A stretch of 49,174 bases of DNA from Escherichia coli (GCF_003334255.1 NZ_QOWU01000040.1); one strand, 5' to 3'. Counted from the stretch's first letter, positions 27,457-37,250 are shown. Program-made: numbers and translations. The notes: a model not told the origin generated them from the sequence alone.

Positions 27457-29286
27457 CTACTCTTCGTCATCGCCATCAACATGCGCACGAATCAGCGCCA
27501 TAAACGGTTTGCCAAAGCGTTCCAGCTTGCGCATCCCAACGCCGTTAACGCTGAGCATTTCGCTGGCGGTGATCGGCATCTGTTCAGCCATCTCAATCAA
27601 GGTTGCGTCGTTAAACACCACGTACGGCGGGACATTACTTTCATCGGCTATCGATTTACGCAGTTTGCGTAATTTGGCGAACAGTTTGCGATCATAGTTG
27701 CCGCCGAACGATTTCTGCATCGCTTTCGGTTTGAGCGCCACGATACGCGGCACGGCAAGTTGCAAAGAGGATTCGCCGCGCAGCACCGGGCGCGCGGCCT
27801 CTGTCAGTTGTAGGGCAGAATGCTGGGCAATATTTTGCGTCACCAGGCCGAGGTGAATCAGCTGGCGGATCACGCTCACCCAATGTTCATGGCTTTTATC
27901 ACGGCCCATGCCATAGACTTTCAGTTTGTCATGACCATAGTCGCGGATACGCTGGTTATTAGCACCACGAATCACTTCCACCACATAACCCATCCCAAAC
28001 CGCTGATTCACACGACCAATGGTGGAAAGGGCAATCTGAGCATCGGTTGAACCGTCGTACTGTTTCGGCGGATCGAGGCAGATATCGCAGTTCCCGCACG
28101 GCTCCTGACGCCCTTCGCCAAAATAGTTCAGCAATACCAGACGACGGCAAGTTTGCGCTTCGGCAAACGCGCCCATCGCATTGAGTTTGTGGCGCTCGAT
28201 ATCCTGCAACTGCCCCTGCGGCTTCTCTTCCAGACAACGGCGCAGCCACGCCATATCAGCCGGATCGTAAAACAGCATCGCTTCCGCGGGCAGGCCATCA
28301 CGCCCGGCGCGTCCGGTTTCCTGATAATAGGATTCGATATTGCGCGGAATATCAAAGTGGACCACGAAGCGAACGTTTGGTTTATTGATGCCCATGCCGA
28401 ACGCCACCGTCGCCACCACAATTTGCAGGTCATCGCGCTGGAATTTTTCCTGCACATCGGCGCGAACATTATTTTCCAGCCCGGCATGATAGGCCGCCGC
28501 GCTAATTCCCTTGCTTTGCAGGCGCGCAGCGGTGTCTTCTACTTTCGCGCGGCTGTTGCAGTAGATAATGCCTGACTTACCGCGCTGTTCCTGCACGTAG
28601 CGCATCAACTGATCGAGCGGTTTGAACTTCTCCATCAGCATGTAGCGAATATTCGGACGGTCAAAACTGCTGATTTGAATCAGCGGATCGTTCAGCCCCA
28701 GCAGGCGCACGATATCCTGGCGCGTGGTGTCGTCGGCTGTGGCGGTCAGCGCCATAAACGGCAGCGTCGGGAACCGCTGGCGCAACTGACCGAGCGCGGC
28801 ATATTCCGGGCGGAAATCGTGGCCCCATTGGGAGATACAGTGCGCTTCATCAACGGCTAATAACACCGGATTCCAGTGCGCCAGATGCTCAAGAAAGTTA
28901 TCCAGCATCAGGCGTTCCGGGGCGATATAAAGCAGACGAATTTGCCCGGTGCGGCAGCCTGTCATCACTTCAAGTTGCTGTTCGCGGGTTTGCGTCGAGT
29001 TAAGGCACGCCGCCGCCACGCCGTTGGCTTGCAGTTGATCCACCTGATCTTTCATCAACGAAATCAGCGGTGAAACAACCACGGTAAGGCCGTTTAGCAA
29101 TAAGGCAGGGATTTGATAGCAAAGGGATTTTCCGCCACCAGTGGGCATGACGACGAGGCAATCGCGGCCGGAAAGCACAGTGTCGATAATTTCTTCCTGG
29201 CCGGGGCGAAACTGTTGGTAGCCAAAGGTTTCTTGTAAAACCTGTTTAGCTCCGGACTCCAGATTCAACACTTCCGCCTGCGCCAC
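27457..29286 (-). CDS. recQ: ATP-dependent DNA helicase RecQ
   Basis: Track ORF 27457..29292 begins at a GTG (MNVAQAEV). I recall the protein as 609 aa starting MAQAEV, which corresponds to the second GTG at 29284..29286, with GGGG five nt upstream as Shine-Dalgarno. DEAH helicase, RecQ-C and HRDC regions are evident. Confidence 0.9.
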
Positions 29287-29302
29287 ATTCACCCCGATTG
29301 CC

Positions 29303-29335
29303 TGAAATAAAAACAGGCGCTATTTTCAGCGCCTG
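29303..29335 (-). terminator. Rho-independent terminator of pldA
   Basis: Perfect 8-bp stem CAGGCGCT/AGCGCCTG with a 6-nt loop, followed on the minus strand by TTTTTATTT. Confidence 0.7.
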
Positions 29336-29418
29336 CGCGAGAAACTGCAATGCTTTTAGTCTCTGAGAGGGTAATCCTGGATGCTGGATTCCAGATTTGC
29401 CAACCACTCAACCGTTCA

Positions 29419-30288
29419 TCAAAACAAATCGTTTAGCATAACCCCCACACCGACACGGGTCTGGTTGAAGTTATAGTCGATGAGCGATTCGCCATAGCCG
29501 CTGTAAACCTGAGTATAAAGGCGCACATGTTTGGTGATCGGGTAACTTAAGCCTAACTCCGCGCCGCCGTAGCCGGTGTTCCAGTTGTACTGTCCTTTCG
29601 CACTGAGCACCGCATCACCGAGGTGATAGCCGATTTTAAGCTGGTAGTAACCCATATATTTGGTGATATCCGGGTTATCGTCAGTATTACCCACCACATA
29701 CCACGGCTTCACTTCTACCAGCCAGTTACCGTTTTCTGCCATCAGGCGAGTATAAAGGCGGTTCCAGCTGCGGGAGGTCGGGTCGGAACGCCCGTTAGAG
29801 TCGTGGTTATACCCCATCTCCACATCGCGCAGCGTCCAACCTGCAAAACGGTAATCGGTGGCAAAACCGAGGAACAATTGCGGTTCGTAGTTGGTTTCAC
29901 GAAACGGTGAAGACTCTTCGCTATTGGACAGTTGCCACCAGGATTTTTGCGTATAAGACGCACCCAACACCGAGTTCGGGCCTAAAATCCCACGCCACAG
30001 CGGAAATGCCAGGCTCAACTGAAACTTTACTTCATCCTTACGCGCATTTTCCGCCCAGTCGTAACTGGCAATCGCTTCTTTATTCAGATCGCTGGTTTGG
30101 GTGTAAATGAGGTAGTTGGTGTCATAAGGATAGAGCGTGAACGGATTGTCATGCTCCTGCAGCATATTGGCGATAATACTGCCACGCACCGCTGGCGCGT
30201 CATGCACCTCTTTCACCGTTGCCTCTTGTGCATATACTGCCATAGGCAACATAAACACCGGCAACAACCAGCCCTGCAGAGTCCGCAT
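29419..30288 (-). CDS. pldA: Outer membrane phospholipase A
   Basis: 289-aa ORF with a signal peptide (MRTLQGWLLPVFMLPMAVYAQE); recognised as OMPLA. Confidence 0.95.
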   Translation of the reverse strand: MRTLQGWLLPVFMLPMAVYAQEATVKEVHDAPAVRGSIIANMLQEHDNPFTLYPYDTNYLIYTQTSDLNKEAIASYDWAENARKDEVKFQLSLAFPLWRGILGPNSVLGASYTQKSWWQLSNSEESSPFRETNYEPQLFLGFATDYRFAGWTLRDVEMGYNHDSNGRSDPTSRSWNRLYTRLMAENGNWLVEVKPWYVVGNTDDNPDITKYMGYYQLKIGYHLGDAVLSAKGQYNWNTGYGGAELGLSYPITKHVRLYTQVYSGYGESLIDYNFNQTRVGVGVMLNDLF

Positions 30289-30971: not shown

Positions 30972-31862
30972 ATGGATGCAAAACAAACGCGGCAGGGCGT
31001 ATTACTCGCTCTTGCCGCTTATTTTATTTGGGGTATAGCGCCAGCGTACTTCAAGTTGATTTACTACGTGCCCGCCGATGAAATCCTGACGCATCGCGTG
31101 ATCTGGTCGTTTTTCTTTATGGTGGTGCTGATGAGCATTTGCCGCCAGTGGTCCTATTTAAAAACGCTGATTCAGACGCCACAGAAAATTTTTATGCTGG
31201 CAGTCTCTGCCGTGCTGATTGGTGGCAACTGGCTACTGTTTATCTGGGCGGTGAACAATCACCATATGCTGGAAGCGAGCCTTGGTTACTTTATTAACCC
31301 GCTGGTGAACATTGTGCTGGGGATGATTTTCCTCGGCGAGCGATTCCGCCGGATGCAATGGCTGGCGGTGATTCTGGCGATATGTGGCGTGTTAGTCCAG
31401 CTGTGGACTTTTGGTTCGCTACCTATTATCGCGCTGGGACTGGCATTTAGTTTTGCCTTCTACGGTCTGGTACGCAAGAAGATTGCCGTTGAAGCGCAAA
31501 CCGGCATGTTAATCGAAACCATGTGGCTGCTGCCCGTGGCGGCAATTTACCTGTTTGCTATTGCCGACAGCTCAACCAGCCATATGGGGCAAAACCCGAT
31601 GTCGCTGAATTTACTGCTGATCGCCGCCGGTATTGTCACTACCGTACCGCTGTTGTGTTTTACCGCCGCTGCCACGCGCTTGCGTCTCTCAACGTTAGGC
31701 TTTTTCCAGTACATTGGCCCGACGCTGATGTTCCTGCTGGCTGTGACGTTTTATGGTGAAAAACCGGGTGCCGATAAGATGGTGACTTTCGCCTTTATTT
31801 GGGTGGCGCTGGCAATTTTTGTGATGGATGCGATTTATACGCAGCGTAGAACGTCCAAATAA
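30972..31862 (+). CDS. rarD: EamA/DMT-family membrane protein RarD
   Basis: 296-aa polytopic membrane ORF starting MDAKQTRQGVLLALAAYFIWGIAPAYFKL. Confidence 0.95.
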   Translation: MDAKQTRQGVLLALAAYFIWGIAPAYFKLIYYVPADEILTHRVIWSFFFMVVLMSICRQWSYLKTLIQTPQKIFMLAVSAVLIGGNWLLFIWAVNNHHMLEASLGYFINPLVNIVLGMIFLGERFRRMQWLAVILAICGVLVQLWTFGSLPIIALGLAFSFAFYGLVRKKIAVEAQTGMLIETMWLLPVAAIYLFAIADSSTSHMGQNPMSLNLLLIAAGIVTTVPLLCFTAAATRLRLSTLGFFQYIGPTLMFLLAVTFYGEKPGADKMVTFAFIWVALAIFVMDAIYTQRRTSK

Positions 31863-31956
31863 AAAATAAATATATTCTGAAAAAATATGCCGACTCTTGC
31901 ATGAGAGTGGGCATATTGCCATGCTGACCGGAGACTCATACAAGGATGTAAAATTT

Positions 31957-32337
31957 ATGTTACGTATATTTATCCCAACATCTAACGGTAAGATTTCCAG
32001 ACGTCGTTATATATTTTCATTTATTTTAATAAATTTCATTTTTGCCTTTCTTATTATCTTTTTTAACGATGGAGAAGCAGGCTTTCTTGTTATAGTCTCT
32101 ACCATCGTACTCCATTATCTCGTCATCAACATGAATTGCCAGCGACTCCGTGATAGTGGTTTCATCTATATAAAAACTTATGTTTTTGGTACATTAGCAG
32201 TATATATCATCTCTATCATCACAATGATAGCCGAAGATTTTGCCTGTTCAGGCAATGGTTCGATGATTTTTTTGATTTGTTATTTTTCCACTTTCAGTAT
32301 GCTAATGCTTGCACCTACTGATTCATCAAAACAATAG
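31957..32337 (+). CDS. yigG: Small inner-membrane protein of unknown function (YigG)
   Basis: Track ORF 31897..32337. I recall yigG as 126 aa, which matches the ATG at 31957 ([18 protein letters not shown]); alternative starts are 31897 and 31921. Very AT-rich and hydrophobic. Confidence 0.6.
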
Positions 32338-32350
32338 TTATGGAGTATTT

Positions 32351-32731
32351 ATGAGTAAGGAATATATGAACGATGGTTCATTAAGTGAAAAATGGAAATA
32401 CCGATTTAATTTTTATGATCAACATGGTTTTCCTGGATTCTGGGGGGCAACACCAGAATATAAAGCAGCATTTAAAGCATTAAAAGTAAGACAACGCTTA
32501 ACTATTCAAATGAATTTCATTGCTTTCTTCTGTTCCTGGATATATTTATTTGTCCTGGGGTTATGGAAAAAAGCAATTATAGTTCTATTACTTGGTATTC
32601 TATCTCTATTTGTTGGTGCACTAATTGGCGTTAACATTCTGGGAATTGCCGTAGCAGCCTATGTTGCTGTTAACACGAACAAATGGTTCTATGAGAAAGA
32701 GGTAAAAGGGTTAAATACCTGGAGCCTTTGA
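32351..32731 (+). CDS. yigF: Small inner-membrane protein of unknown function (YigF; DUF2628-like as I recall)
   Basis: Track ORF 32309..32731. Start trimmed to the ATG at 32351 (MSKEYMNDGSLSEKWKY), preceded by GGAG, giving 126 aa. Confidence 0.65.
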   Translation: MSKEYMNDGSLSEKWKYRFNFYDQHGFPGFWGATPEYKAAFKALKVRQRLTIQMNFIAFFCSWIYLFVLGLWKKAIIVLLLGILSLFVGALIGVNILGIAVAAYVAVNTNKWFYEKEVKGLNTWSL

Positions 32732-32737
32732 ATAACA

Positions 32738-32775
32738 GGTGGCTTAGCCAGACTAAGCCACCGCTCTCGTTTTTT
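32738..32775. terminator. Hairpin terminator between convergent yigF and corA
   Basis: GGTGGCTTAG-CCAGA-CTAAGCCACC 10-bp stem followed by GCTCTCGTTTTTT; the T-run overlaps the corA stop codon. Confidence 0.65.
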
Positions 32776-33724
32776 ACAACCAGTTCTTCCGCTTAAAGTA
32801 CAGATACGGTGCCAGGCCCGCGAGGATCATAAAGATAATCGCGCCAGGGTAGCCGAAGCTCCACTTCAGTTCTGGCATAAACTCAAAGTTCATGCCATAG
32901 CTGGAAGCAACGAGCGTCGGCGGCAGGAATACCACGGATACCACCGAGAAGATTTTGATGATGCGGTTCTGCTCGATGTTGATAAAACCCATTGCCGCCT
33001 GCATCAGGAAGTTCACCTTCTGGAACAGGGATTCGTTATGCGGCAGCAGGGATTCGATATCTCGCAGGATTTCACGCGCCTGCTCCAGTTGCCCACCCGG
33101 TAAACGCGCTTTACGCACCAGGAAGTTGAGCGCGCGCTGGGTATCCATCAGACACAGGCGAACTTTCCAGCCGATATCTTCCAGTTCCGCCAGAGTGGAG
33201 AGCGCCTCGTCGTACTCATCGCCCTGATGCCCTTCCATAATCACCCGGCTCAACTGCTCCAGGTCGCTATAGATATTTTCAATTTCATCTGCCAACTGTT
33301 CGATTTTGGTTTCGAACAGATCCAGCAGCAACTCGTAGGCGTTACCGTCTACCATCGACTGGCTACGGGCACGCATACGATACAGACGAAAAGCGGGCAG
33401 TTCACGCTCACGCAGAGTAAACAGACGACCATCACGGATGGTAAATGCCACAGTGGAGTTACCGGCGTGATCTTCCGCATCTTCAAAGAAGAAGAAGGAG
33501 TGAATATGCAGGCCGTCGTCGTCTTCAAAGAAACGTGCCGATGCTTCGATGTCTTCCAGTTCCGGGCGGGTTGCCAGGCTCTGGCCAAGTTCAGATTGTA
33601 CGCGCAGTCGCTCGTCGTCGTCCGGTTCGACAAGATCAATCCATACTGCATTTACAAGGGGTTGTGACTCTTCGACTTCCAGCCGGGTCAGTCGGTTATT
33701 TTCCAGTTGAAATGCGCTCAGCAT
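32774..33724 (-). CDS. corA: Magnesium/cobalt transport protein CorA
   Basis: Track ORF 32774..33739. Start trimmed to the internal ATG ([17 protein letters not shown]), 316 aa. C-terminal YGMNF motif present. Confidence 0.95.
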
Positions 33725-37167: not shown

Positions 37168-37225
37168 TGGCACCGCCGCGTAAAAATAGGTTGGGCGGAG
37201 AAGCGCAACGCCCTCCGCCAAAAAG

Positions 37226-37241
37226 CTGGGTATATATACAG
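37226..37241 (-). promoter_or_regulatory. LexA (SOS) box of the uvrD promoter
   Basis: Minus strand reads CTGTATATATACCCAG, matching the CTGT-N8-ACAG consensus, about 60 bp upstream of the uvrD ATG. Confidence 0.8.
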
Positions 37242-37250
37242 ATTTGCTGA

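Follow-up and report, generated by a model that had tools for sequence, protein, structure and literature searches.

The pldA and recQ genes of Escherichia coli raise a simple question: where does transcription of recQ begin if what looks like the terminator of pldA ends just before the recQ ribosome-binding site? The question comes from a first-pass annotation of the DNA analysed here (hereafter the window, a stretch of 49,174 nucleotides from E. coli, GCF_003334255.1 NZ_QOWU01000040.1), which claimed that a strong pldA terminator adjoins the recQ Shine-Dalgarno sequence and leaves no room for a promoter between them. According to the ORF list and its translation, pldA, encoding outer-membrane phospholipase A (289 aa), spans 29419..30288 on the minus strand, with its TGA stop at 29421..29419; it is annotated under that name in K-12, in EDL933 and in all 5426 complete E. 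coli genomes. The recQ coding sequence (609 aa by translation) spans 27457..29286 on the same strand and starts with GTG at 29286, and the K-12, BL21, GF43 and EDL933 annotations all contain an identical 1830-nt version of it. The intergenic spacer is 132 nt long (29418..29287, minus strand), as it is in EDL933. The recQ Shine-Dalgarno sequence, GGGGUG, lies at 29290..29295 on the minus strand (GGGG at 29295..29292), and the GTG sits 5 nt past the GGGG. Its purine run is kept in 14/14 aligned orthologues, two of the G residues being invariant and two more nearly so. An alternative GTG located 6 nt upstream of the start (29292) is not kept in the Citrobacter or Enterobacter alignments.

Between 23150 and 35150 the window is 99.99% identical to MG1655, a window coordinate w corresponding to NC_000913.3 position 4035150 - w, and the segment 29200..29560 is base-for-base the same in the window, MG1655 and EDL933. 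Upstream of rarD, the EDL933 sequence (4886000..4888200, locus L085) differs from that of the window (about 31850..32920): the alignment breaks at window position 31851, and the yigF-yigG region gives way in EDL933 to a hypothetical gene together with part of a corA-family pseudogene.

A terminator scan combined with folding identified a stem-loop at 29313..29336 on the minus strand, in which the 5' arm (29336..29327) and the 3' arm (29322..29313) are joined by an AAAA loop (29326..29323). The minus-strand sequence of this hairpin, from 29336 to 29313, is GCAGGCGCUG-AAAA-UAGCGCCUGU; six of its 10 pairs are G-C and the loop is 4 nt long. The U-tract UUUUAUUU follows at 29305..29312 (minus strand), so that eight of the nine nucleotides from the last stem base (29313) to 29305 are U. 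The hairpin has a calculated free energy of -16.6 kcal/mol, compared with -9.8 ± 2.5 kcal/mol for dinucleotide shuffles (z = -2.7), and 4/200 shuffles fold as well. The G+C-rich stem-loop and the U-rich tract behind it are on the transcribed strand, in the same orientation as pldA and downstream of its coding sequence. With its G+C-rich 10-bp stem, tetraloop, immediate U-tract and location downstream of a stop codon, the element resembles canonical Rho-independent terminators. From this canonical anatomy and from the conservation described below we infer that the hairpin and U-tract form an intrinsic terminator that closes the pldA unit. Among the supplement entries listed for Kim 2012 and for the Term-seq study of Adams 2021 we found none for recQ or pldA, and there was no coordinate match in Adams 2021.

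The hairpin does not directly follow pldA. Its stem starts 82 nt past the pldA stop codon, because most of the spacer is occupied by the remnant of an immunity gene. This remnant (29356..29402, minus strand; a by-eye match with substitutions) corresponds to the 3'-terminal part of an immunity gene of the WapI family and reads ...LANLESSIQDYPLRD*, with its TAA stop at 29358..29356. It resembles, by eye, the end of a 152-aa gene found intact between the two genes in E. coli GF43 and in E. albertii NBRC 107761; that gene matches Pfam PF24716 (WapI-like immunity) with E = 6.6e-22. The intact gene is present in 3 of the 5426 complete E. coli genomes (N3, GF43 and GF4-3); in the compared loci it occupies positions 1089..1547 of L083 and about 1450..1960 of L002. 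In GF43 and E. albertii its stop codon directly precedes the GCATTGCAG of the conserved block described below. The remnant of BL21(DE3) is 8 nt shorter.

Only 9 nt separate the U-tract from the GGGG of the Shine-Dalgarno sequence, and since no more than ~18 nt lie between the U-tract and the start codon there is no space for a -35/-10 pair downstream of the hairpin. The first-pass annotation was therefore right about the lack of promoter room, and it reasoned that recQ has to rely on a promoter that overlaps the terminator or precedes it, or else on read-through from pldA. Published start sites point to the first of these options. Table S5 of Zehentner et al. (BMC Microbiol 2023, PMC10469882) compares distances from start codon to transcription start site (TSS) in K-12 (RegulonDB v10.5) and EDL933 (Cappable-seq). 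Its recQ entries place the K-12 starts 31, 28 and 6 nt ahead of the start codon and those of EDL933 (gene 25395) 218 and 28 nt ahead of it, the 28-nt start differing by 0 from that of K-12. Gene 25395 is EDL933_RS25395 recQ, which has the same start codon and 132-nt spacer as recQ in the window. By these entries the main recQ TSS, which gives a 28-nt leader, is G29314 (minus strand; K-12 4005836, about 4003859 in U00096.2; ±1 nt by counting convention), the second-last base of the hairpin 3' arm. The second RegulonDB start, at 31 nt, is C29317 (minus strand) and lies in the 3' arm as well. The position of the main start is thus shown by two independent 5'-triphosphate mapping sources, in K-12 and in EDL933. 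In these entries the main start falls inside the 3' arm, and not at a promoter with its own -10 and -35 downstream of the hairpin, the finding that would have told against the annotation. Folding of the 28-nt leader revealed no significant structure.

The sequence upstream of G29314 contains elements with the geometry of a sigma-70 promoter. A PWM scan assigned the -10 element to GAAAAT (29322..29327, minus strand), which matches the consensus at 4/6 positions, among them the critical A at -11 and the T at -7, likewise critical, and coincides with the hairpin loop plus the G-U pair that closes it. The putative -35 element, TTGCAG (29345..29350, minus strand; 3/6), is directly 5' of the hairpin and 17 nt upstream of GAAAAT, where 16-18 nt are expected. 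The primary 5'-triphosphate end of the published entries lies 7 nt past the -10, within the expected 6-8 nt, and in the orthologue alignment the hexamers and their spacing are kept while the flanks drift. At 7/12 matches to the consensus the promoter is weak. Its PWM score, 6.56, is the second best in the region; the window has about 8 sites per kb and strand that score at least 6, which makes this promoter unremarkable on sequence alone, and a promoter scanner with a threshold of 9/12 called nothing on the minus strand of the region. The hexamer assignment was deduced from geometry and conservation, and the case for an embedded recQ promoter rests on the mapped start together with conservation. 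A search of the supplement of the ROSE in vitro TSS study found no recQ promoter entry. Using genomic SELEX, Shimada et al. 2017 (PMC5493296) reported a sigma-28 (RpoF) peak that lies within pldA, in the interval from yigI to recQ, and maps to about 29727 in the window (K-12 U00096.2 4003446); no obvious sigma-28 consensus was seen near the recQ start sites.

The EDL933 start that lies 218 nt ahead of recQ raises the possibility of a different arrangement, in which recQ is transcribed from a promoter upstream of the hairpin and the hairpin, as an attenuator, sets the recQ level. Such an arrangement has a precedent in E. coli, where the frd terminator and the ampC attenuator reportedly overlap, as Grundstrom and Jaurin are said to have described in 1982. 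Both there and at pldA-recQ, units of the same direction overlap and the terminator of the upstream unit is located directly before the ribosome-binding site of the downstream gene. One candidate for the upstream promoter is the secondary TSS within pldA, A29504 (29504..29517 with its -10, minus strand; K-12 4005646), which the EDL933 Cappable-seq entries of Table S5 contain and which has a good -10, TATACT (29517..29512), at the correct distance, the discriminator being 7 nt long. This start is absent from the K-12 RegulonDB starts given in the same table, and its -35, CGATCA, is poor. The other candidate, TTGGCA-18-CAGGAT, has the top PWM score of the region (6.79); the rough PWM used does not distinguish it from TTGCAG/GAAAAT, both being at chance density. 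It lies within the Escherichia-only pseudogene remnant, and the recQ entries of the table report no TSS ~80 nt upstream of the gene; we therefore rejected it as the recQ promoter. Nor does any alternative antiterminator stand out, the fold of the whole intergenic region giving z = +0.39 against shuffles. Sequestration of the Shine-Dalgarno sequence in read-through RNA, a further candidate, was also rejected: pairing of an upstream segment with the one that holds the Shine-Dalgarno sequence was seen, by eye, only in the minimum free energy structure of that fold and was absent from the centroid.

We consider it decidedly unlikely that an upstream start and attenuation at the hairpin account for recQ expression. 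In ampC the promoter is inside frdD, upstream of the hairpin, and the hairpin in the ampC leader attenuates transcription; the main recQ start, in contrast, is in the 3' arm and escapes. Only the minor 218-nt start would act like that of ampC. RNA from A29504 would meet the terminator after ~195 nt. Since it must cross the terminator, this RNA could be at most a minor, attenuated input to recQ, and the start could also be a spurious intragenic promoter or yield a small 3'-end RNA.

To see how far the arrangement extends, we scanned genomes at the species level with the RecQ N-terminus and obtained 80 loci. pldA lies directly upstream of recQ in 20 loci (19 from the scan plus the K-12 reference). 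The conserved block is present in 13 taxa: E. coli, E. albertii, three Citrobacter, four Enterobacter-like taxa, Mangrovibacter, a soil MAG, Brenneria and Pectobacterium. All 13 have TTG[C/A]AG, exactly 17 nt, GAAAAT and [A/G]GCGCCTG, in a block placed 30-36 nt before the recQ GTG. The -10 GAAAAT is invariant (13/13) and the -35 is TTGCAG in 12/13 and TTGAAG in the remaining one. The hairpin core GGCGCUGAAAAUAGCGCC is nearly invariant over the 13 taxa, and the 18-mer GGCGCTGAAAATAGCGCC differs only by one A-to-G change in Enterobacter sp. Ag1. The bases that join the -35 to the stem vary, and all that precedes the -35 differs in both sequence and length (0 to about 110 nt past the pldA stop codon). 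In Citrobacter, Enterobacter and Mangrovibacter the block begins 0-25 nt, and the stem ~17-43 nt, past that stop.

In this alignment of the 13 taxa we found no covariation support for the hairpin: 91% of the cells are paired, there are 0 compensatory changes, and the stem simply does not vary. In this respect the element is unlike canonical intrinsic terminators, as its loop and stem are sequence-invariant across family-level distances. We take this invariance to reflect a second function in the same bases. An invariant loop is expected of a -10 element and is not needed by a plain terminator, which supports the embedded promoter. A U-rich tract is found in 11/13 of the block-bearing orthologues; the promoter elements stay intact in Enterobacter sp. 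Ag1, Brenneria and Pectobacterium, taxa whose U-tract or outer stem is degraded.

Loci outside this group differ in what they have kept. At the orthologous site of Budvicia diplopodorum (L017 1942..1970) we found ACGACA-17-TAAAAT-AGCGCC, a better promoter and the sole promoter-like site that the scanner called in that region; no stable hairpin and no U-tract were found at this site. A separate weak palindrome followed by T5 (GCGAGATATCTCGGTTTTT) is located closer to the Budvicia pldA stop codon. In Erwinia psidii (L014) a diverged hairpin, GGCGGCTGAATCCTTCAGTCCGCC, followed by T5 adjoins the Shine-Dalgarno sequence and has no -10-like loop. In Pantoea stewartii, Ca. Pantoea persica and Rosenbergiella (L018, L019 and L022) the gap between pldA and recQ is 16-25 nt and contains no hairpin, which suggests that the two genes form a true operon in Pantoea and Rosenbergiella. 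The patterns in Budvicia, in the taxa with weakened terminators and in Erwinia and Pantoea indicate that promoter and terminator are separable in evolution. They are fused in the Enterobacteriaceae and Pectobacteriaceae and appear unfused in Budvicia.

These comparisons also bear on whether pldA and recQ of E. coli are themselves an operon, with recQ expressed mostly by read-through from the pldA promoter, whose start lies 48 nt before pldA, and the 28-nt start being minor. The synteny of the two genes in 20 Enterobacterales loci is what such an operon would lead one to expect, and the short, hairpin-free gaps of Pantoea and Rosenbergiella imply that co-transcription is probably an ancestral or alternative state. 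The hairpin of Erwinia psidii, which adjoins the Shine-Dalgarno sequence with no -10 in its loop, shows moreover that the embedded promoter is not universal, so that read-through must suffice in some lineages. In E. coli, however, the terminator looks strong (10 pairs, -16.6 kcal/mol, 8 U in 9 nt), the start-site entries place a primary 5' end 28 nt upstream of recQ in two strains, and the -35 and -10 hexamers, like the distance between them, are kept more strictly than termination would require. We think it very unlikely that most recQ mRNA of E. coli originates at the pldA promoter.

The block being invariant without covariation, it could also be argued that the palindrome GGCGCT-N6-AGCGCC is kept mainly as the site of a regulator, or as part of a small RNA from the pldA 3' UTR, and that the promoter hexamers are incidental. 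A conserved single-stranded GCAUUGCAGUUUCUC lies just 5' of the hairpin, as in 3'-UTR small RNAs, and the A29504 start of the EDL933 entries could give a ~195-nt RNA that ends at the terminator. Small RNAs of the DapZ and MicL type derive from 3' UTRs and have their own internal promoter. Like these, pldA has an internal start (29504), then a conserved stretch and then a terminator; unlike them, it has no Rfam match, and most of its 3' UTR is an unconserved pseudogene remnant. In a scan of 28900..29800 against Rfam 15, with E up to 10, we obtained two chance matches (E = 0.75 and 2.1), to unrelated eukaryotic and archaeal families, and no family at the element. The palindrome occurs once in the window, which is compatible with chance. 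A promoter accounts for the mapped TSS and for the Budvicia site, which has a -10 and discriminator without the 5' half of the palindrome; an RNA or a dimeric operator does not. We know of no candidate regulator for GGCGCT-N6-AGCGCC and, to our knowledge, no 3'-UTR-derived small RNA has been described for pldA. That a regulator or a small RNA is the main reason for the conservation appears to us extremely improbable, and we retain the promoter as the second function of the block.

A specific candidate for regulation at this site is LexA. SOS regulation of recQ was reportedly, to go by the title, the subject of a 1986 study by Irino, Nakayama and Nakayama (Mol Gen Genet 205:298), while the first-pass annotation had found no clean LexA box upstream of recQ. 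The sequence agrees with the latter: the 210 nt upstream of recQ (29480..29270) contain no CTG-N10-CAG. The best 20-mer, GCCTGTTTTTATTTCAGGCA (29318..29299), overlaps the recQ start site, but it is a degenerate CTG-N9-CAG whose half-site spacing is wrong by 1 nt, and it has 9/20 mismatches to the consensus TACTGTATATATATACAGTA. As many as 122 sites in the window match the LexA consensus as well or better, which is the level expected by chance. The top match of the window, AGCTGGGTATATATACAGAT (37224..37243), has 6 mismatches and lies, by coordinate mapping, just upstream of uvrD. We assume this site to be the SOS box known for uvrD, and it served as a positive control for the scan. As judged from these matches, there is no support for a direct LexA site at recQ, and LexA control of recQ at this position seems very improbable.

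Taken together, we consider it quite probable that a block of ~50 nt (29350..29303, minus strand) is at once the intrinsic terminator of pldA and the sigma-70 promoter of recQ, contained in one and the same DNA. When a polymerase arrives from pldA, the RNA of both arms would be present and would fold, and the transcript would be released in the U-tract. Read as double-stranded DNA, TTGCAG, the 17-nt spacer that holds the 5' arm and the GAAAAT of the loop would recruit RNA polymerase, and the first nucleotide transcribed would then be G29314, among the final pairs of the 3' arm. The recQ mRNA would thus begin with GUUUUUAUUUCAGGCAAUCGGGGUGAAU-GUG, having the U-tract but not the 5' arm. As an mRNA that lacks the 5' arm forms no terminator hairpin, it should proceed into recQ. 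It is plausible that the weak promoter, the short 28-nt leader and the GTG start go with a low level of recQ expression.

Two consequences may follow from the overlap. Terminating polymerases cross the entire recQ promoter, and pldA transcription may therefore interfere with initiation at recQ. And since the U-tract of the terminator doubles as initial transcribed sequence, at positions +3 to +10, the recQ transcript would start with G followed by UUUUUAUUU. Homopolymeric T-tracts in the initial transcribed sequence have been linked to reiterative initiation in E. coli (bioRxiv 10.1101/2024.12.23.630015). In the UTP-sensitive reiterative-initiation promoters of pyrBI, codBA and upp, a T-tract lies within the first transcribed nucleotides, as it does in recQ (G at +1, then UUUUU). 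Unlike in those promoters, the T-tract of recQ is explained by its role in the terminator, and the likeness is one of resemblance only. One can nevertheless imagine that the fusion of terminator and promoter is itself regulatory: occlusion by polymerases could couple recQ inversely to pldA, or UTP-dependent reiterative or abortive initiation could tie RecQ to the pyrimidine pools, and the invariance of GGCGCTGAAAATAGCGCC would then be the outcome of a triple constraint. We regard this as improbable. The first recQ mutants were obtained through their resistance to thymineless death, and in view of that origin a link to UTP, if true, would be of interest.

The element itself is already known as a promoter. 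RegulonDB records a recQ promoter of K-12, reportedly going back to Irino et al. 1986; its entries, as given in Table S5, have the same locus and the same starts 28 and 31 nt upstream of the GTG. It is the same object, and its start sites are public. Relative to that record, the present analysis adds that the -10 element is the loop of the terminator and that the arrangement is conserved across genera. A literature search on a promoter/terminator overlap at recQ-pldA returned nothing useful. Nothing in the data calls for a new kind of element, and we regard the arrangement as a tidy but ordinary piece of E. coli gene organisation.

The apparent paradox of a gene without room for a promoter is resolved by the public start sites, and beyond annotation this matters little. 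The overlap has some practical relevance for the deletion of pldA, for cassettes inserted between pldA and recQ, and for reuse of the sequence as a synthetic 'terminator part': such a part would fire a downstream transcript of its own, which calls for caution in synthetic constructs. For the biology of the family, the block offers a clean and conserved case in which a single 50-nt stretch would act as a terminator when read as RNA and as a promoter when read as DNA. Should the speculative link of recQ to UTP pools or to transcription of pldA be real, a genome-maintenance helicase whose control is poorly defined in E. coli would gain an extra regulatory input.
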